Source: Verrucomicrobiota bacterium
Lineage (GTDB): Bacteria; Verrucomicrobiota; Verrucomicrobiia; Methylacidiphilales; JBCBYL01
NCBI GenBank assembly: GCA_039815855.1
Contig: JBCBYL010000002.1
Location: 1-47,929 of the forward strand
Reading direction: 5' to 3'
DNA length: 47,929 nucleotides
A program made the position numbers and the translations under genes. Numbering within the stretch: position 1 is the stretch's first letter; every line of letters starts with the position of its first letter. The notes below the pieces were generated by a model. It worked only from the letters and a program-made list of their open reading frames with translations, searched no databases and had not been told where the DNA came from. Below, in pieces: positions 7,929 to 39,100 of this stretch.

Positions 7929-8390
7929 GGCGCAATGATCTTTGGTGGTGAGTTCATCTCCCGTCATTGCGCTTGCCACGGCGAAGCTCTACGCGACTTG
8001 TGGGGTCGTAGTACGGCGGCTGCCGCACGAAGCCCCAAGACGGGAGAGCGTAGCGACGCGGCAATACGCTGTTCACGAATCCTGAGTGAACACTCCTATA
8101 CTCATTTCATTCTCGTTTAGTTTAACCGGAACAAAGTGGAGGTTAAAGAATCCAGATCGATTGACGTAAATCAACAAAGCCTGTCCACACCCTTGAGCCC
8201 TTGCGAATGGATTGCTTCACTCTGTTCGCAATGACCCAAGGTGGTGAATTCGTCTGTTGTCATTGCGAGGAGCGTAGCGACGCGGCAATCCAGACCGTAT
8301 GACGTAGAGGGGCCATACCAGTCAGCACTCTTAAGTCCTTACGTGTGGCTCCGGCTTCGTGCGGCAGGCGCAATGATCTTTGGTGGTGAG
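7929..8390 (+). repeat. Composite GC-rich hairpin repeat element, copy 1 (between divergent dnaE and rpsU)
   Basis: It is bounded by an exact 24-nt direct repeat ggcgcaatgatctttggtggtgag (7929-7952 and 8367-8390). It contains an 89-nt imperfect stem-loop closed by ctcccgtc/gacgggag (7958-8046). It also carries the modules gtcattgcgaggagcgtagcgacgcggcaatcc, ggattgcttcactctgttcgcaatgacc and atccagaYcgNNtgaYgta. It is homologous to 20484-20942 and 25225-25525. Confidence 0.85.
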
Positions 8391-8413
8391 CAATCCAAAA
8401 CCATTTCTTCTCA

Positions 8414-8442
8414 TTGACACCCATCTAAGGAGCCATTAGCTT
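8414..8442 (+). promoter_or_regulatory. Candidate sigma70-type promoter for rpsU
   Basis: ttgaca (8414-8419), then a 17-nt spacer, then tagctt (8437-8442). The -10 element is weak, and promoter rules for this phylum are uncertain. Confidence 0.25.
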
Positions 8443-8668: not shown

Positions 8669-8695
8669 CCTTCTAGTTAGAAGTTTTCATTTTAA

Positions 8696-8733
8696 CCCGA
8701 CTAGCGCAAGCTGGTCGGGTTATTTTGTTTTTT
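8696..8733 (+). terminator. Rho-independent terminator after rpsU
   Basis: The stem is cccgac-t-agc / gct-g-gtcggg with a GCAA tetraloop, followed by ttattttgtttttt. Confidence 0.75.
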
Positions 8734-17588: not shown

Positions 17589-18389
17589 TTAAGCTGTGAT
17601 CGTCGCAATTTCTGCTTCGGCCTGCTGGTCCGCTTGAGCTGCTGCGAGCGCCTTAGACCATGAACCGAAAAAGCGTGGCTTACAAGCTGCCGCAAAGAGA
17701 GCCGGCGCTTCCTGGCGCACATCACTACTTTGCATGCGAACACCTTGATCACGGAGTTCACGGATTCCTGAAACGATGTCTTCTTTCGTCCAGCGACGGC
17801 GGCGGCGAATTGAAGCGTAGTCGATACCTGCTTTTTCTACTGCGGTTCCCCAGCTCCCGAAACGGCGCCTCGCTGTTGCGATCAGTGGGTTTGCTGTCTC
17901 ATCCATTGTTTTGGAGCTGATATCCGCGCCTTCTTGTTTCAAGCGGCGAATCTCATCCAGGATGGTTTGATCATCCCATGACCGGTAACGATAAATTTCT
18001 TCTGGAGCTAAACCGGCTGAGGTCAAAGCAGACTTCCATGACCCAAAATGCTTTGGTCGAATCGCCGCGTGGACCATTGAATTGTATTTGCTCAGCATCA
18101 TCGAGCGGAAAGAAAGATCTACTCCTTGCTCGTGAAGCTTCTGAATGGTTCCGATGATACGATCCTTGGTCCAATCGTTATACTTACGAACGTCGTCGTA
18201 ATCAATCCCAGCTGCGGTTACTGCCGTTTTCCAACTTCCGTGGTAACGGATGCCTGCTGCGAGCAGTTCCTGAAAGTTCTTGCGAACGTAGTGTGAATAC
18301 AGGGGCTTTCCTTCTTCATTCCACTGACGAATTTCATCTAATACATCAGAGGATGACCATTTTCTATTCTTGCGTGTGCGTTGAATCAT
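17589..18389 (-). CDS. Protein made of four tandem homing-endonuclease-associated (HNH_repeat-like) repeats, with no nuclease domain
   Basis: 266 aa. It has four units of about 60-65 aa with the pattern W(S/T)x(D/E)xI(L/I)xxIRxLxxxG...(F/H)GSWxxAxxxAG(I/L). Confidence 0.6.
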   Translation of the reverse strand: MIQRTRKNRKWSSSDVLDEIRQWNEEGKPLYSHYVRKNFQELLAAGIRYHGSWKTAVTAAGIDYDDVRKYNDWTKDRIIGTIQKLHEQGVDLSFRSMMLSKYNSMVHAAIRPKHFGSWKSALTSAGLAPEEIYRYRSWDDQTILDEIRRLKQEGADISSKTMDETANPLIATARRRFGSWGTAVEKAGIDYASIRRRRRWTKEDIVSGIRELRDQGVRMQSSDVRQEAPALFAAACKPRFFGSWSKALAAAQADQQAEAEIATITA

Positions 18390-20483: not shown

Positions 20484-20942
20484 GTGGTAAGTCCATCTCC
20501 CGTCATTGCGCCTGCCACGGCGAAGCTCTACGCGACTTGTGGGGTCGTAGTACGGCGGCTGCCGCACGAAGCCCCAAGACGGGAGCGCATAGCGACGCGG
20601 CAAAACGCTGTTCACGAATCCTGAGTGAACACTCCACTACTCATTTCATTCTCGTTTAGTTTAACCGGAACAAAGTGGAGGTTAAAGAATCCAGACCGTT
20701 TGATGTAAGTCAACCAAGCCACTCTGCACTCTAAAGCCCATGCGTGTGGATTGCTTCACTCTGTTCGCAATGACCCGGGATGGTGAATTAGTCTGTTGTC
20801 ATTGCGAGGAGCGTAGCGACGCGGCAATCCAGATCGATTGATGTAAGTAAATCTGTCCAGTCCGCACCCTCACCCTCACGTACGCAGATTGCCTTCCTAA
20901 TTCCTAATTCTTCCTTCTTCACTCTCCCTTCTCAATTCCTCC
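20484..20942 (+). repeat. Composite GC-rich hairpin repeat element, copy 2 (between convergent genes)
   Basis: Colinear with copy 1 over about 345 nt. The long stem-loop is at 20497-20585. Its TC-rich tail (about 20897-20942) overlaps the 3' end of the DUF4174 gene. Confidence 0.85.
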
Positions 20943-21349
20943 CGCCTCATCGGCATCCGGTCAATTAGCTCAAAGACTACCTGCAGGGAAAAGTCTTCTT
21001 TCCTGAAGCGCTCCTTCGTTCCGCCATCGAGTCCGATTAAAGCCAAATCCGCATCTCCCAGGCGCTTTCTCACCTCCGCCAGCACCGCTTCAGATGGGGC
21101 ATTCTTGCTTCCATAGATAGACCACTCCTGATCGGAATGAATGAGGAAAAAGAGCTTCCGCTCCCGGACTTCGATTTGATTCTTAGAGATCTCCTTGCGC
21201 AGCTGGGCCAGAAAAAGAGGATTTTCTACAGATCCAATGACCAGACGCTTTTTCCACTTCAATTCAGCTAAAGACTGTGCCTCAGACATGCCCGCTGCTC
21301 CTAGAAATAAGATGATCAAGCCTATCCGCCACATGCTGTAAGATACCAC
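20897..21349 (-). CDS. DUF4174 domain-containing secreted protein
   Basis: 150 aa with a signal peptide, LKWKKRLVI near the N-terminus, and LIGLDGGTKERF...LIDRMPMRREE, the DUF4174 signature as I recall it. Confidence 0.7.
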   Translation of the reverse strand: MVSYSMWRIGLIILFLGAAGMSEAQSLAELKWKKRLVIGSVENPLFLAQLRKEISKNQIEVRERKLFFLIHSDQEWSIYGSKNAPSEAVLAEVRKRLGDADLALIGLDGGTKERFRKEDFSLQVVFELIDRMPMRREELRRESEEGRIRN

Positions 21350-21412
21350 AACTCTCGCCCCTGCCTTGCTCCTTCTTCATTCTTCATTCTGAATTCCCAA
21401 TTCTCCTCCCTC

Positions 21413-22585
21413 TCAAGCGCGGCAAGCTTCCGCAACCGCCTTCGCCACCAGCGGGGCAACCGAACGATCTAACGCCTCTGGCAGGATGTAATCGGCAGTC
21501 GGATCAGGAACGGCATTTGCCAATGCATGGGCTGCGGCAATTTTCATCTCACCAGTAATCCCGTCCGCCTGAGCATCGAGCGCCCCCCGGAAGATCCCCG
21601 GAAAAGCGAGGACGTTGTTGACCTGGTTGGGAAAGTCACTGCGGCCGGTTCCGATCACCGCCGCCCCGGCAGCTTTCGCTTCATCGGGCATGATTTCCGG
21701 GGTCGGATTGGCCATGGCGAGGATGATGGGGTCCTTAGCCATCCGCTTCACATCCTCAGCGTTGAGAAGGTTTCCCTTACTCACTCCGATAAAAACGTCC
21801 GCATCCACGAGCACCTCTTGAACACTTCCTGTAATCTGCCCGGGGTTGGTGAAACCGAGCACCCCCTTTTTCTCTGGAGTCAGGTTCTCGCGTCCTCCAT
21901 GAATGGCTCCTTTCGAATCACAGAGAATGATCTCACGAACCGGAACACAGGCAGAGCTTTCCTGGCCGACGCAGCGGAGCAATTTGGCAATAGCGGTGCC
22001 CGCTGCACCTGCCCCATTGATGACTACTTTCAGATCTTCCGGGTTTCGTCCTGTTACCTTGCAGGCATTCAGGAGTGCGGCCAGCAGGACGATAGCGGTG
22101 CCATGTTGGTCATCGTGAAAAACCGGAATGTCCAAGTCTTGGAGAGCTTCTTCGATTTCGAAGCAACGCGGCGCCCCGATATCTTCTAAATTGATCCCGC
22201 CAAAGGAAGGAGCAATCCGACGCACGGTATCGATAATTTCCTGCGAATCCTGGGTGTCTAAGCAGATCGGCCAGGCATCGATATTTGCGAATTCCTTAAA
22301 AAGAAGCGCCTTCCCCTCCATGACCGGCATCGCGGCCAGGGGCCCGATATTCCCGAGGCCCAGCACCGCAGAACCATCTGAGACCACTGCGACCGAATTT
22401 GATTTAATGGTCAGATCACGGGCTCTTGACGGATCTTGAGCAATCACCTCGCACGGACGTGCTACGCCGGGAGTATAGCCCAGGCTCAAATCATCACTGG
22501 TTCGGATCGGGAGTTTATTATGAACCGCGATTTTACCGCGAAGTTGCTCATGGAGAATCAGGCTGCGTTCAGATGTATCACTCAT
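21413..22585 (-). CDS. NAD(P)-dependent malic enzyme (short form)
   Basis: 390 aa with LSLGYTPGVA, VVSDGSAVLGLGNIG, FGGINLEDI, FHDDQHGTAIV and NGAGAAG. Confidence 0.92.
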   Translation of the reverse strand: MSDTSERSLILHEQLRGKIAVHNKLPIRTSDDLSLGYTPGVARPCEVIAQDPSRARDLTIKSNSVAVVSDGSAVLGLGNIGPLAAMPVMEGKALLFKEFANIDAWPICLDTQDSQEIIDTVRRIAPSFGGINLEDIGAPRCFEIEEALQDLDIPVFHDDQHGTAIVLLAALLNACKVTGRNPEDLKVVINGAGAAGTAIAKLLRCVGQESSACVPVREIILCDSKGAIHGGRENLTPEKKGVLGFTNPGQITGSVQEVLVDADVFIGVSKGNLLNAEDVKRMAKDPIILAMANPTPEIMPDEAKAAGAAVIGTGRSDFPNQVNNVLAFPGIFRGALDAQADGITGEMKIAAAHALANAVPDPTADYILPEALDRSVAPLVAKAVAEACRA

Positions 22586-22780
22586 GCCTATTGAGATACC
22601 CCAAACTCATCCTTATTCGATCAAAAATAAAGCCTGCGCTCTCTGTGGTAATTCTGTTTAGTGAGGATGGTCTTGAGTTCATTCCTTCACCCTTAACCCT
22701 CCATCCTTCTGACTTCATCCCCCGGGCTTGTTTTTTGATTCCATCCCTACTTCGATGGTGATACGTTTACCTCTACAAAT

Positions 22781-24325
22781 ATGAGAATAAAACTTTCTGC
22801 CATTTTCTATGTCCTGAGCGCAATTGGATGCGTCACGCTCACTGCAGCCACTAAGCCGAATATTGTCTTTCTTTACGTCGATGACTGGGCCTGGTCCGGG
22901 ACACCGATCGCCATGGATGAAGTCCATGAGAATTCACGCATGCCTATCCTCCAGATGCCCAACCTGACCAAGATGGCTGAACAAGGGATGAAGTTCCGCA
23001 ATGCTTACGGAGGACCTCAATGTGCACCGGCGCGGGTGAGCATCCAGACAGGGCAATCGGCTCCCCGTAGTGGCTACACCCTCGTCCTAGGAAAAATCAA
23101 GGACGACTACTACGATATGCGTAAGCAGTGGTCTGGCCTGCCTCTCATCCCGAATGTTTCAGACACCTCTATCAAACCAGATGCCGTCACCATCCCTGAA
23201 GTGCTCAAACCATTAGGCTATGCCAGTGCCCACGTTGGCAAATGGCACATGTATTCCGATCCCGGTGCGGAGGGTTATATCGTCCATGATGGAGACACGA
23301 CCAACACCCCTGGAAACACAATTAAAAGCGGAGGAAAGCAAATCCCAGCTGACATGACCGACCCGAAACTCATGTTCAGTATGGCGGAAAAAGCCCTCGG
23401 TTTTATTGAAGACCAGGCGAAGGCGAATAAACCGTTCTACCTGCAAATGTCTTATTATTCCATGCACGCTGGATCCGAGTGTCTTCCCGCCACCCGTGAA
23501 AAATATGCCAACATGCCCGAGGTAAAAGCCTACTACGAGCGCACCGGACAGGACCCAAATAAACTCAACCGGAAAAGTGATCCGGCGGTCTGGTTTGGCA
23601 TGGGGGAAGACATGGACACCACCTTTGGCATGATCCTCGATAAACTCGAAGCACTCGGCATCGCCGAGAACACCTACGTCGTCATGGCCGCAGATAATGG
23701 GTATCGCCACAAGGAACTCCTCGTCACCGAAGGCATGACCCAGCCCCTACACGCACATAAGTGGTGGGCCTGGGACGGCGGTATCCGCGTTCCAATGATC
23801 GTCACCGGGCCAGGCATCCCGGCCGGAACCACCTTCGAGGGGAATGTGGTCAATTACGATTTCCTTCCGACCTTCTTCGAATGGGCCGGCGGTGATCCAG
23901 AGACGTTGGAGAATATCGATGGGATCAGCCTGGCGGGTTATATGGCTGGGGAAAAGCCCGATGAAACCTTTTTAAAGCGCCCCCTCTATTTCCACGTTCC
24001 GCATTACCGCTCTGAGATCCCTCATTCCGCGATCATTTCCGGCAACCAAAAAGTCATGCACTTCTATGATTCTCCTGACACCCCCATGCTTTTTGATCTT
24101 TCTCAGGACCCGGGAGAAGTGGAGAACATCGCTACCGTTCAGCCTGAAGACCACCAAGCGCTTTTAGGACAAATGATGTCTTATTTTGAAGAAGTCGGAG
24201 CCCGGATCCCGAAAAAGAATCCTGATTTCGATCCTGAAAAATACAAAAGTAACCCCAGTTACAAAAAATATATCGCCTGGGGCGCTTTCGAAGGAAGCCG
24301 CCCTCTGGCCGATGACGAAAAATAA
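22781..24325 (+). CDS. Sulfatase (Cys-type, formylglycine-dependent)
   Basis: 514 aa with a signal peptide, [10 protein letters not shown], the active-site motif [12 protein letters not shown] (C-x-P-x-R), and GKWH. Confidence 0.9.
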
Positions 24326-24379
24326 TTCAGCACAAAGATCCCCTCCCCCCAGTTGGCCTCGCCGCCTGCCCTGCGTTTG

Positions 24380-25213
24380 ATGAAAATAAAATTCCTACTC
24401 CTTATCCCCTTTTTACTGAGTTCCTGTGGCTACTTTAAGTACCAGGAAGTCGAGAGCGTCAAAAAAGCCGAACTCCAGAGCCCGGATAAGGTCATCCAGT
24501 ATTCCACCTATGCCGGCTTGATCGAAAGACTCTTCGATGGCTTTGTCACCATCGACACCGTGCTTTGCCAGGGGAACCACGGTATCGGCACCACCGATTG
24601 CCTCCACGGTGAACTCATCATCATGGATGGCATCCCCTATCGGGTCACTTACGATGGAGTCGTCGAAATCGTAGGCAAAGAGGAAACCACCCCGTATGTC
24701 ACTCTCGCCAATGTCGATCCCGATCAAGCGGTCCTCATTACCTTACCCGCCGGAACCACCGTCCAGGAACTCACTGCCAAAGTCGCTGAACTCGCTGCCG
24801 ATCAATTTCAGAAAAATTTTCCTTATGCCATCCGGTTGGAAGGCAAATTCGCCTCGGCCCGGATGCGCAGTATCCCTAAGTTAGAGAAACCTTTTATTTC
24901 TCTAGCTGATGTCGCGAAGAACCAGAGCATCTTTACCTTTGAAAACGAGTCTCTTTCCATTATCGGATTCTGGAATCCCTCTTATGCAGAGGATTTGAAT
25001 CCACCCCAGTGGCATATCCATGGTCTCAACGCCGCCCGCACCTCTGGCGGCCATGTCCTCGACTTCACCACTGCCGAGGACGTGCAGGTCTCCCTTTGGA
25101 AGCTGATCGGCTTTGATGTCAATCTGCCAGACTCCACGGAATTTGCCGAGGCCGACTTTTCCCAGGACCTCAGCGCTCAGATCCAAAAAGTCAATCGAGA
25201 CAAAGAAGACTAA
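24380..25213 (+). CDS. budA: Alpha-acetolactate decarboxylase family protein with lipoprotein signal
   Basis: It has YSTYAGLIERLFDGFVTIDTVL.QGNHGIGTTDCLHGELIIMDG, WHIHG and GGHVLDF. The N-terminus from ATG 24380 is MKIKFLLLIPFLLSSCG (lipobox LSSC). The ORF is open from a TTG at 24353. Confidence 0.8.
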   Translation: MKIKFLLLIPFLLSSCGYFKYQEVESVKKAELQSPDKVIQYSTYAGLIERLFDGFVTIDTVLCQGNHGIGTTDCLHGELIIMDGIPYRVTYDGVVEIVGKEETTPYVTLANVDPDQAVLITLPAGTTVQELTAKVAELAADQFQKNFPYAIRLEGKFASARMRSIPKLEKPFISLADVAKNQSIFTFENESLSIIGFWNPSYAEDLNPPQWHIHGLNAARTSGGHVLDFTTAEDVQVSLWKLIGFDVNLPDSTEFAEADFSQDLSAQIQKVNRDKED

Positions 25214-25224
25214 GACGCGCATCA

Positions 25225-25525
25225 TTCCGCCCGTCATTGCGCCTGCCACGGCGAAGCTCTAAGCGAAGACGGGAGAGCATAGCGACGCGGTAATCCAGAC
25301 CGTTTGACGTAGAGGGGCCAAGCCTGTCCGCACTCTCAAGCCATTGCGGATGGATTGCTTCACTCTGTTCGCAATGACCAGGAGTGGTGAATTCGTCTGT
25401 TGTCATTGCGAGCGTTAGCGAAGCAATCCAGACCGTATGACGTAGAGGGACCAAGCCTGTCCGCACTCGCACTCCCACGCACGCAGATTGCTTTCCCCCT
25501 TCTTCATTCTAAATTCCTACTTCCC
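25225..25525 (+). repeat. Composite GC-rich hairpin repeat element, copy 3 (short variant)
   Basis: It has the same modules as copies 1 and 2. The apical 47 nt of the long hairpin are replaced by 6 nt. The module atccagaccgtNtgacgtagagggNccaagcctgtccgcactc is present twice (25303-25345 and 25427-25469). The TC-rich tail includes ttcttcattctaaattcc (25500-25517). Confidence 0.8.
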
Positions 25526-36156: not shown

Positions 36157-39100
36157 GTGAAAATTCCAACGGTAGTTGTTTTGTTCGTTTTACATGTGCT
36201 GTCCACGATCGGGTGGGCCCAGATCTCGATACGGGCGAATGATACCAGCAATACATCCACGAAGGAGTTTTTTTACCATTGGGATGGTTTCGAGTTTCAG
36301 TGGCATGGGCCAGGAATCGACTTTGTTAAAAGCGGTGACCTGTCCGGATTCCCGGCGAGCGGGAGCAGCTTTAGCCAGCCGTATTCGGGAAATGGTTTTG
36401 CCTATATCATGTCCTCGGTATCCAACTGGGATACCGGCCTGGCCGCGGCCGCTGTGGCGTCCTCCTCTGGACTCCCTCCAGAATCATCACCCTTTATCGC
36501 CTACCTGAATAGCTTAACGTTTGGAACGGTCAATCGACACGGCGGCAATCAATACGGGTTCGGCGTCGATAATGGAGACGCACGAGTCAGTCCGGAAGCC
36601 CGCGAAGATAAGATCGATGTACCCGGTGAGGCGCTGGTGATTTCTTTCGACCTCCAAGGTCAGCTAGACGTAGGTTCTGCAAGCGGATCATTTGGACCCG
36701 AATCTTCTGCTTCGTTCGAGAATATGGGGCTTCACGAGAACGCTCGGTTAATACTCAAGGAACTGGTTATTCGCCCCTGGGCGGCGGGTGTGACCGGGGA
36801 AATCGATTATCTTTTTTACGATGCCAGCGAGGGTACCTTTTTAAAAAATAGCGCGGGTGTCTCAGCCTTTCGCGAATACGTCGATATGCGCACGACAGGT
36901 TCAGTTCTTCAGGGCCCCTGGACGATTGAGCATGGGGATATCCTCATTATCGCGCATCCCACCGATACGACGAAAAACCTCAACCTGATTTCATCCGAAC
37001 TCTGGAGTATGACCTTCGACCTGGAGTTTGACGCACCTACCCCTGCTCCCTTAGACGTTCCCAGCGATCCAGCGGACTTTCCCCAACACCAATACGCGCC
37101 CGGTTTTTCCAACATCTGGCGGACCGATGGAGAATTACTGGCCATGTATCGCACAGAGCCTGGCAACTCCAGCATCCGGACTGTGGTTCAGGACTTTCAC
37201 CGTGGATATCTCCTGACCGAAAACCGGGGATCGACTATTGGTAATAGCCACATCTTTTTCGACCTCACCGATGTCACTTCCGAAAACCCCAGTGTCCCCC
37301 TTCCCGAGGACCGGATACTCACGGAGGCTTTGAAAGTTCCCAACAGGGGGAATATGCACACGGCCTACTCACTCTTGCCGGACTACCGGGTGAATCATCC
37401 CGGAGACAATTACGTAGATTTAGCTGGTCTATCCAACAGCACGCCGAGCATTGCCACGGTCGGCAGACCTCCGGGCTTCTCCGGAGCGGATGGGGGTGCC
37501 CGCAGCGCCTATATTCTCCCGTACCACTACGATTCGCAAGGCAATGGAAAAAGAATCGTGGATGCGCGCACGGGGCAGACGCTCTCTACCTTCGATGAAT
37601 ACGGCTTTGGCAGCGGAACCCTTCCGGTTCCTGTCGGGAACATCCTCCTACTAGCCAAAATTCGCGCCGGTGAACGTGCCATCGCCAGCTATGACATCAG
37701 CGATCCTGCAAACCCGGTACTGCTCGATGTGATGCGAGACTCGGATCCTCGCTGGCGGCATCAGGAAGGTGGAGCTTATGAGCCAGCCATTTACAATAAC
37801 TACTTTGTTGTCCCCCTATCGCTCCGCGGCGGCACCATCGGGTTTGTCGACTACACGGATCCGGGAAACCTACGCATGCACCACATCATCAGCGGCACCA
37901 GGGGTGCTCAGCGCTACATGCAATTTCAGGATCACCGGATGTTTGCCGGGACCGAAGTCATTGATCTCACCCACCTTAACGGAGGCATCACCCCGACGGA
38001 GCACAACTTCCCGGGTCATAAAGGCGAATATATGCTCCCCCTCGGAAATCTGGTGGTTTGCGCTGAGAATTCAGAACAGGGCGGTGACAATCTCGGTGCC
38101 ATTTACGCCTTCCAGGCCGAGCCCGATGTCCGTCCTCCTTCGGTCACCTATCATGTTCCCGCCGCCGACGCGACGGACCAGCTGGTAACAAGTCGCATCG
38201 GAATGGTGATTCACGAGACGCTGGACGCCACCACGATTGATGAAACCACCTTCCGTGTTTTTCCGGTTAGCGATACCACTGAAACCAGCATTCCGGGCAC
38301 CCGGGTGTGGAGTGATAAGGATATTCTCACCTTTACCCCCATGTCTCCGCTTGAACCCGAGACGACCTATCGCGTCGTGGTTGAGGGCTTCACCGACATC
38401 GTCAGCAATCCCATTGGGCGCTATAGCTTTAACTTCACCACGGCCGGTCCGGATTCACTCTTCTACCCCACGGTTACACAAGCCGGCATAACGACCGCGG
38501 AACTAATCGTCGACACGCCCATTGAGTTCTTCCTCAATGCCACCCCGGATGGGGGACAAAACGCCGATACCCTCGAATATAGCTGGGACTTTGGAGATGG
38601 TACCGTGACGGATTGGAGCAACGCAAACCAGACCATCAGTCACGCCTATCAATATCCTGGTAAGTTTGCGGTCCGGGCCCGTGTGCGCAGCGTCAATGCG
38701 CCCGAGCGGGTGGCCATGCGCTATCTACAGCCTTCGGTGTTCTTCAAGGCGGCAGGTGAAGATGGTTTCGAGCCTCGCTTTGAAGCTGAAAGAGGAACGT
38801 TGACCGGTCCCAATAGCGGGATTTTTACCTCAACGGATTCGTCTGGTGGGATGTATGTCGTGGGCGGACCGAATTCCGGGCTTTATTGGGACTTTGATAG
38901 TGTCGGCGGCGCTTTTGATTTTCAATTCCTCATCGCCATGCCGGAAGGAACATCCGTTCCGGGCAATCAAAGTACCTGGTGGCGAATGGGTGTCTACGTG
39001 AGCGAGATTGTCGATGGGGTTGAAACCAACGAGGTTTTCCTTGGGGAGATTGAAACGCGTAGTCTCACCTATGAATACAAGGGCACCTCGGCCTATCTTC

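Follow-up and report, generated by a model that had tools for sequence, protein, structure and literature searches.

We analysed a 47,929-nt stretch of DNA from an uncultured Verrucomicrobiota bacterium (GenBank assembly GCA_039815855.1, contig JBCBYL010000002.1, positions 1 to 47,929; hereafter, 'the window') in which three intergenic, gene-free loci, at positions 7929-8390, 20484-20942, and 25225-25525 (loci 1, 2, and 3), carry a common ordered series of repeat modules. Locus 1 lies in a divergent context, between dnaE on the minus strand and rpsU on the plus strand; locus 2 lies in a convergent context, between an open reading frame (ORF) for a 136-aa membrane protein on the plus strand and a DUF4174 gene on the minus strand; and locus 3 lies in a tandem context, between genes for acetolactate decarboxylase and a prepilin-type protein, both on the plus strand. 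An initial annotation, made from the sequence of the window alone, had described a modular, degenerate, tandem-like repeat family in these divergent, convergent, and tandem contexts, and both the contexts and the character of the repeat prove to be as described. A repeat search of the window, in which loci 1 and 2 show 91% identity over 300 nt (7945-8244 vs. 20484-20783) and all three loci share a 121-nt family with 84-85% identity (8149-8269, 20688-20808, and 25292-25412), likewise verifies the coordinates and modules. The core 9-mer, GTCATTGCG, is present in nine copies in the window, six on the plus strand and three on the minus strand, and every copy falls within the three loci; the chance expectation (mean of shuffles) is 0.38 copies, and none of 100 shuffles reaches nine.

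The conserved unit of the arrays is an oriented arm, YGTCATTGCGAG-(small variable hairpin)-GCAATCCAG, which may lie on either strand and reads (C/T)GTCATTGCGAG, small variable hairpin, GCAATCC(AG). We refer to this form of the arm, YGTC-ATTGCGAG-(mini hairpin)-GCAAT-CCAG, as the 'GC allele'. In head-to-head pairs the arms are separated by a 23-nt loop, and in tail-to-tail pairs by a linker of ~55 nt; each locus contains one intact head-to-head dimer, comprising a left arm, the 23-nt loop, and a right arm. The minus-strand arms, GTCATTGCGAACAGAGTGAAGCAATCC (8209-8235, 20748-20774, and 25352-25378), are a 27-mer identical at all three loci. The plus-strand arms (8259-8291, 20798-20830, and 25402-25429) read c/tGTCATT...GCAATCCAG, and are accompanied at each locus by an expanded plus-strand arm, R', of 64-104 nt (7963-8066, 20502-20605, and 25233-25296). 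The canonical tag is present on plus-strand arms only; in all three minus-strand arms, position -1 is G (GGTC; window bases 8236, 20775, and 25379). The exact 24-nt direct repeat that had been noted as framing the first array, GGCGCAATGATCTTTGGTGGTGAG, is present at 7929-7952 and 8367-8390, and corresponds, as proposed, to a junction between modules: that is, to the end of a variant minus-strand arm plus the start of a loop, or a partial extra unit. The right end of array 1 is the arm tail GCAATCC at 8390-8396, which extends past position 8390, and arrays 2 and 3 finish with a truncated GATTGC, at 20887-20892 and 25486-25491. We conclude that the arrays are mosaics with nested insertions that resemble bacterial interspersed mosaic elements (BIMEs).

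Predicted folds of the head-to-head dimers as single-stranded DNA (ssDNA) have free energies of -18 to -21 kcal/mol (z = -3.5 to -5.4). The predicted fold of the arm comprises an outer stem of 5 bp (ATTGC/GCAAT), an internal loop, and an inner stem of 2-5 bp. For 284 distinct arms, the interior is more stable than shuffled interiors in 70% of cases.

The composite arrays are all co-oriented, as the initial annotation had stated; however, the shared orientation is not independent evidence, because it has a probability of 0.25 by chance with three loci and because nearly all 4-kb bins of the window (1-47929) have negative GC skew. The plus strand is probably the lagging-strand sequence throughout the window. 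If the plus strand is the lagging strand, the canonically tagged arms would sit on the leading-strand template, a suggestion that concerns only three loci in one replichore.

The arm and its partner gene in other bacteria

We scanned one genome per GTDB species with the pattern TCGCAATGAC-N15-30-GTCATTGCGA. The results indicate that head-to-head dimers of the same type are present at at least 120 loci elsewhere, in nearly every bacterial phylum; the outer flanks, GATTGC...GCAATC(Y), are present in nearly all of these loci, and the interiors and loops are variable. The matches listed include Chloroflexota, Bacteroidota, Bacillota, Spirochaetota, Alpha-, Delta-, and Epsilonproteobacteria, Rickettsiales, Cyanobacteria, Planctomycetota, Nitrospirota, and others. 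The exact 27-mer of the window minus-strand arms is present at 35 loci in more than 10 phyla, with carriers that include Aminicenantes, Gracilibacteria, Legionella, Bacteroidota, Pelosinus, Rhodoferax, Cyanobacteria, and Nitrospinaceae; no Verrucomicrobiota genome is among the matches to this exact 27-mer. Of 503 distinct arms, 97% have C or T at position -1, and GCAATC is followed by a tail of Y, A or C, and G, in that order; this tag and this tail agree with those of the published Neisseria repeat NTS, CGTCATTCCCGCG..GCGGGAATCYRG. The presence of the arm across phyla excludes the scenario in which just the three window copies exist. It also bears out the suspicion that spurious translations of the window repeat resemble junk ORFs from many phyla, since those ORFs reflect a repeat that is truly present in them: the repeat accounts for very common junk ORFs (..VIASEAKQS.., ..DCF.LAMT.., and ..HCEERSD.AI..) in genomes and metagenome-assembled genomes (MAGs) of almost every phylum. 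In IMG/VR, with its 2.9 million viral contigs, only ten stretches (L317-L326), of either true phage DNA or host DNA flanking prophages, contain the head-to-head dimer motif, which gives no obvious indication of phages as a main carrier.

Regular tandem arrays of head-to-head dimers, cleaner than the window arrays, occur in a Spirochaetaceae MAG, the cyanobacterium Dapis, and two further genomes (L096 and L108). Their coordinates are L018 101-360, L096 3762-4500, L060 1936-2380, and L108 315-470; the arrays of L018, L060, and L108 have periods of ~100-160 nt, and that of L096 has an irregular one.

We clustered, in an unbiased manner, the ORFs within 600 nt of the motif across the at least 120 loci. 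The clusters comprised junk ORFs, housekeeping families, and one small family of ~95-aa proteins with a GIY-YIG domain (PF01541, E = 6e-14). In five of five cases an arm lies 130 nt or less from the gene for the GIY-YIG protein, upstream, downstream, or both. These small single-domain proteins belong to the Ssn family of site-specific ssDNA nucleases, the published representative of which is SsnA, a 94-aa GIY-YIG protein (cd10448); homologues of SsnA are flanked in many phyla by NTS-like 'Ssn-related motifs' (SRM; Chenal 2025, PMC11893778), with the Neisseria NTS being CGTCATTCCCGCGMAVGCGGGAATCYRG (PMC11893778). SsnA binds the repeat as ssDNA only and on one strand only, cuts just upstream, and ignores double-stranded DNA and RNA; the biochemistry covers Neisseria, N. 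elongata, N. wadsworthii, and Wolbachia (PMC11893778). Meningococcal SsnA limits transformation by NTS-flanked DNA, 81% of SRM-rich genomes encode Ssn, and the authors pointed out that NTS-ssnA-NTS has an architecture like that of an insertion sequence and parallels the system formed by repetitive extragenic palindromic (REP) elements, BIMEs, and REP-associated tyrosine transposases (RAYTs) (PMC11893778).

In a reverse test, a profile of the ~95-aa proteins retrieved 80 homologous genes from GTDB genomes (L157-L236). A GC arm was present on both sides of the gene in 26 of the 80, an NTS arm (GTCATTCCCG type) on both sides in 25, and arms of mixed type in none; 72 of the 80 genes had at least one arm. 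Where GC arms bracket the gene, the arm is plus-oriented upstream and inverted downstream. Core 10-mers, with one mismatch allowed, were ~65-fold over chance beside the genes, and their density there was ~35-fold that of the distal flanks. Canonical NTS, CGTCATTCCCGCTCAGGCGGGAATCT, flanks the homologue of N. gonorrhoeae, which ties the homologue set to published SsnA. No NCBIfam model matches these Ssn proteins.

The type of arm correlates with the type of protein: in 69 of 71 cases, the arm allele is the same as that of the nearest protein neighbour. At a site directly after the conserved R-E-K motif, proteins with GC arms (GTCATTGCGAG) have K-[AG]-G-S-R-x-K-K, and proteins with NTS arms have K-x-W-x-R-x-W-K. 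This segment is a candidate determinant of arm specificity, and the covariation of G/K vs. W/W with the arm provides a concrete hypothesis for how 95-aa nucleases might read ssDNA hairpins, with a bearing on proposed programmable ssDNA cutters.

In contrast to the arm, the other modules of the window arrays appear to be confined to them. The lineage-specific loop and linker had no copies in JGI metagenome contigs (two scans), and blastn comparison of the loop, the linkers, and three further modules described below (a 43-nt hairpin, an AT-rich insert, and a CT-rich module) with 2.1 Mb of other fetched loci gave no real match. Because of this blastn result, the linker is not a recognisable remnant of an ssn gene. 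As judged from these comparisons, the arm alone is universal, and the window loops, linkers, and inserts have no counterpart elsewhere.

Gain and copying of the arrays

In three relatives (Verrucomicrobiota MAGs with DnaE 62-63% and RpsU 92% identical), the divergent dnaE/rpsU arrangement is kept, with spacers of 176-383 nt. Arms are absent from the dnaE-rpsU spacers of all three, and the window spacer is 609 nt. Since related Verrucomicrobiota have no arms at this position, we infer that the array was gained in the dnaE-rpsU spacer, on a scale of comparison in which the closest DnaE among GTDB representatives is 62-65% identical to that of the window. A promoter-like element of rpsU, TTGACA-N17-TAGCTT, lies directly downstream of array 1, at 8413-8440, and aligns with TTGACA...TTTAGTA in the three relatives; because this conserved element lies downstream of the array, the insertion left the rpsU promoter intact. 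The DnaE (62%), RpsU (92%), and dnaE/rpsU synteny closest to those of the window and of the Verrucomicrobiota MAGs are found in L237 (CAYGPJ010000027.1), from a MAG labelled 'uncultured Blastochloridaceae'; mis-binning of this contig, or a wrong label for the MAG, is the probable reason.

Loci 1 and 2 share nested features, which argues that the 300-nt composite was copied as a block. A 4.4-kb contig of an independent Logan assembly of the same organism (run SRR22824272) is 100% identical to window positions 20804-25259, and both of its ends break inside arms, as expected for a multi-copy repeat; the repeat is a common cause of assembly breaks.

Relation to known repeats and rival explanations

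The arms of the window share with SRM/NTS the form of an oriented semi-palindrome with 5' (C/T)GTCATT and 3' AATC-Y-R-G, and the plus-strand arms have the flanks that define SRM (5' HGTC(A/T)(C/T), 3' ...AATC-Y-R-G). They also share the multi-copy, intergenic, clustered occurrence of SRM, with nine arms in three intergenic clusters within 48 kb; the wide phylogenetic spread; and, in other genomes, the bracketing of ssn homologues by arms of the GC type, in a repeat-ssn-repeat arrangement. The arms of the window differ from NTS in having an ATTGC/GCAAT stem with an internal loop and a mini-hairpin, whereas NTS has a perfect ATTCCCGCG/CGCGGGAAT stem, and the partner proteins of GC arms form a K-A-G-S-R subgroup distinct from NTS-type Ssn. 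The window also differs from published SRM loci in that it contains no ssn gene, and cleavage of the GC allele would follow by analogy with the published enzymes.

The arms correspond also to the 'CGTC-tagged' REPs, which have a tag CGTC or TGTC, a stem that starts with A-T pairs, and a CCA tail, which are mostly head-to-head dimers, and which, as families CGTC-1 to -4, include Neisseria dRS3 and Rickettsia RPE-4 and RPE-6 (Di Nocera 2013, PMC3733652). The window arms have an unpaired cGTC/tGTC tag, an ATT...AAT stem start, and a CCAG tail, form head-to-head dimers, and have no associated tyrosine transposase, a likeness judged by the published descriptions rather than by the consensus sequences of families CGTC-1 to -4. 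Unlike the continuous 8-9-bp stem and 4-5-nt loop of CGTC-tagged REPs, the window stem is interrupted, and the R' arms reach 64-104 nt; in addition, Verrucomicrobia lies outside the five phyla listed for CGTC repeats (PMC3733652). For CGTC repeats, no dedicated transposase was found (PMC3733652). Literature queries with sequence strings and junk-peptide strings returned unrelated primer matches only. Among the options put forward in the initial annotation, 'REP-like' was thus the right one. The statement there that the class is widespread but poorly described holds for the first part, given the many phyla, but not for the second, the class having been catalogued in 2013 (PMC3733652) and linked to Ssn in 2025 (PMC11893778).

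More broadly, the arms resemble REP/BIME elements and the REPIN-RAYT system, in which REP doublets form long ssDNA hairpins, in being short hairpin repeats of alternating orientation, and in such doublets (PMC3116915, PMC2817692). The resemblance to REPIN-RAYT extends to a nuclease gene that is present once and lies between copies of its own repeat, and to a mechanism that is likely to act at the level of ssDNA (PMC3116915, PMC2817692). The fold of Ssn, however, is GIY-YIG rather than HUH/Y1, the tag is YGTC rather than GTAG, and the GC arm is nearly identical across phyla, whereas REPs are lineage-specific. With IS200/IS605 elements and their palindrome-associated derivatives the system would share recognition of a subterminal ssDNA hairpin and cleavage beside the hairpin; unlike for IS200/IS605, neither TnpA or TnpB, nor defined left and right ends, nor a guide-sequence logic was seen for the window repeats.

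Taking these results together, we propose, with a probability of about 0.78, that the three loci are mosaic BIME-like clusters of a pan-bacterial CGTC-tagged REP/SRM arm, in its GC allele, tied to an Ssn nuclease that acts from elsewhere in the genome. The three loci represent clusters of selfish or domesticated repeats rather than genes or riboregulators. The repeat class is a known one, to which the window adds a member in an uncultured Verrucomicrobium and a second major arm allele; what is new is an allele missed by the published pattern and a candidate protein-DNA specificity covariation, and the novelty is modest. The mechanism that we envisage, by analogy with published Ssn enzymes (PMC11893778), is as follows. 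An Ssn of the K-A-G-S-R type would be encoded elsewhere in the genome, and would bind the arm hairpin strand-specifically when the DNA is single-stranded, during replication, during repair, or in incoming transforming DNA; the plus-strand arms would be the ones bound. The nick made by the enzyme would lie 5' of the YGTC tag, at a distance of a few nucleotides: within the 23-nt loop in the case of a head-to-head dimer, and in the upstream flank otherwise. Arms may be spread and kept through Ssn, by cut-and-paste or copying of ssDNA in the manner of RAYT/REPIN or by break-induced recombination, and composite blocks such as the 300-nt block of loci 1 and 2 may be moved or copied whole. With respect to the flanking genes, the arrays are probably neutral or have a mild regulatory effect.

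Several results weigh against this proposal. The ssn gene is absent from the 48-kb window, such that the cognate enzyme for the window arms is a presumed one. SRM are inverted repeats of 20-50 nt that can form an ssDNA hairpin; the predicted folds of single window arms are weak (z = +0.3 to -1.3), in contrast to the perfect hairpin of NTS and to the strong folds of the head-to-head dimers. The G at position -1 of the minus-strand arms is found in ~2% of the 503 arms elsewhere and in none of the 35 arms with the identical 27-mer, and, because this base is rare, the minus-strand arms of the window may be uncleavable. Neither a target-site duplication nor a precise empty site was defined at the arrays. 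To our knowledge, movement of repeats driven by Ssn has not been demonstrated experimentally in any organism. Finally, the published SRM pattern, HGTCWYN(0-2)YYVSBRHN(0-5)WNVSBRGN(0-2)RNCYNB, matches no window arm (its sole match in the window, at 37272, is unrelated), and detects only 2 of 37 GC-type ssn loci vs. 31 of 34 NTS-type loci. The printed pattern is too narrow for the GC allele, and, because it largely misses this major allele, published counts of SRM-Ssn association are probably underestimates.

The presence of arms without an ssn gene in the window would also be expected if the arrays were orphan relics of a past SRM/Ssn invasion, in which the cognate Ssn was lost and inert repeats persist by drift or local recombination. 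The degeneration and truncation of arms, their disruption by nested insertions, and the non-canonical -1 base of the minus-strand arms are all consistent with such decay, as is the presence of Ssn in 81%, rather than 100%, of SRM-rich genomes (PMC11893778). Against decay, the 91% identity of the 300-nt composite in loci 1 and 2 and the identity of the 27-nt arm in all three loci point to fairly recent copying or to constraint, and the breaks within arms in an independent assembly suggest that copies are many; we regard orphan relics as unlikely, but as a real possibility. REP elements mobilised by a RAYT (a Y1 HUH transposase of the IS200/IS605 type), with the arrays as classical BIMEs, would have a similar architecture, with alternating imperfect palindromes, hairpin doublets, and intergenic location, as in the textbook case of REPIN and RAYT (PMC3116915). 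We consider mobilisation by a RAYT very improbable, given that the tag is YGTC and not GTAG, that the sole gene family recurrently bracketed by arms encodes a GIY-YIG protein and not a Y1 transposase, and that Di Nocera et al. found no RAYT flanked by CGTC repeats (PMC3733652). Domain scans of the larger ORFs of the window, moreover, detected no transposase, RAYT, or GIY-YIG/ssn gene, in agreement with the initial annotation as regards transposases.

The geometry of right arm, short linker, and left arm resembles a spacer between terminal inverted repeats, and elsewhere the same geometry occurs with a gene in place of the linker, as would be expected for a conventional miniature inverted-repeat transposable element, a deletion derivative of an insertion sequence with a DDE transposase. 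However, the gene between the arms encodes a 95-aa GIY-YIG nuclease and not a DDE transposase, no transposase was found among the window ORFs scanned, target-site duplications were not seen, and the arms are near-identical across phyla, unlike the terminal repeats of insertion sequences; of all the explanations considered, a derivative of this kind is the least credible. Strong hairpins, at a locus between convergent genes (locus 2) and a locus downstream of a gene (locus 3), could instead reflect selection on RNA, with the arrays serving as a structured non-coding RNA, a terminator, or an mRNA-stabilising element; REP-type elements affect mRNA stability in E. coli. The structured-RNA or terminator role suggested in the initial annotation finds no counterpart in Rfam, where nothing reached the gathering score over the whole window and only noise was obtained at E up to 10 over locus 1. 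The arrays contain no hairpin followed by a T-run; a clear terminator does exist for rpsU, at 8693-8722. The arms lie on both strands, locus 1 lies between divergent promoters and upstream of the conserved rpsU -35/-10 elements, cross-phylum conservation extends to the arms only and not to loops or linkers, and SsnA does not bind RNA (PMC11893778). We therefore give an RNA-level function very little credence.

The proposal of Ssn-tied arm clusters can be extended, tentatively and with odds that we judge to be against it, to a view in which Ssn/SRM is a GIY-YIG-driven mobile system acting on ssDNA, a counterpart of RAYT/REPIN. The transposing units would be head-to-head dimers, or even composites of ~300 nt; the short helix that follows the catalytic Glu would determine the specificity for the arm allele (K-A-G-S-R-x-K-K for GTCATTGCGAG and K-x-W-x-R-x-W-K for GTCATTCCCGCG); and the gain of the dnaE-rpsU array and the 91% identity of the 300-nt block would reflect recent activity in the window.

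Module structure of the individual arrays

All modules are given on the plus strand unless stated otherwise. Array 1 begins with a remnant of a variant left arm, GGCGCAATGATC, and a loop, TTTGGTGGTGAGTTCATCTCCC (7929-7962), which together contain the first copy of the 24-nt direct repeat. These are followed by the CGTC-tagged R' arm, cccGTCATTGCG...GCAATA (7963-8066), with an interior expansion of ~34 nt and a nested 43-nt hairpin at 7997-8039, and by an AT-rich insertion of ~83 nt (8067-8149), which interrupts the arm tail between GCAAT and ATCCAG and is absent from locus 3. A tail-to-tail linker, ATCCAGATCGATTGACGTA...CCTGTCCACAC... (8150-8208), then leads to the dimer, comprising the minus-strand left arm (8209-8235) with its -1 base G rather than C or T, the lineage-specific 23-nt loop, CCAAGGTGGTGAATTCGTCTGTT (8236-8258), and the canonical right arm, tGTCATTGCGAGGAGCGTAGCGACGCGGCAATCC(AG) (8259-8291). 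A second tail-side linker (8292-8348) and a terminal unit of variant left arm, GGCTTCGTGCGGCAGGCGCAATGATC, truncated loop, TTTGGTGGTGA, and tail GCAATCC (8349-8396), with the second copy of the direct repeat, complete the array.

Array 2 begins 4 nt past the stop codon of the upstream ORF, with a loop remnant and an R' arm that contains the nested 43-nt hairpin (20484-20605), and continues with the second copy of the AT-rich insertion (20606-20688), a tail-to-tail linker (20689-20747), and the head-to-head dimer (20748-20830; left arm on the minus strand, 20748-20774; loop, 20775-20797; right arm, 20798-20830), for which the predicted ssDNA fold has a free energy of -18.0 kcal/mol (z = -3.8). 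A linker with the truncated left-arm start GATTGC follows (20831-20892). Array 3 comprises an R' arm that lacks the nested hairpin, cccGTCATTGCGCCTGCC...GCGGTAATCC (25233-25296), a tail-to-tail linker, AGACCGTTTGACGTAGAGGGGCCAAGCCTGTCCGCAC... (25297-25351), a head-to-head dimer (25352-25429; left arm on the minus strand, 25352-25378; loop, 25379-25401; short right arm, GTCATTGCGAGCGTTAGCGAAGCAATCC, 25402-25429) with a predicted ssDNA fold of -21.4 kcal/mol (z = -5.4), and a linker with the truncated left-arm start GATTGC (25430-25491).

The AT-rich insert (8067-8149 and 20606-20688) contains a TGTTCAC/GTGAACA hairpin, and the 43-nt nested hairpin is present in two copies, at 7997-8039 and 20536-20578; both could be further small mobile modules that target arms. 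A CT-rich repeat, TGCYTTSC..CTTCTTCAYTCT..AATTCC, is present at 20890-20940, 21362-21398, and 25489-25525. Two copies adjoin the truncated GATTGC at the right ends of arrays 2 and 3, and the third is a solitary copy between the DUF4174 and malic-enzyme genes, which, read on the minus strand, provides AAGGAG close upstream of the DUF4174 start codon. The copy at array 2 (20897-20940) forms the final codons of the called DUF4174 ORF. Approximately 2 kb from array 2, a 266-aa ORF on the minus strand (17589-18389) matches the Pfam family PF18780, 'Homing endonuclease associated repeat' (E = 3e-21); the ORF has no flanking arms and no detected nuclease domain.

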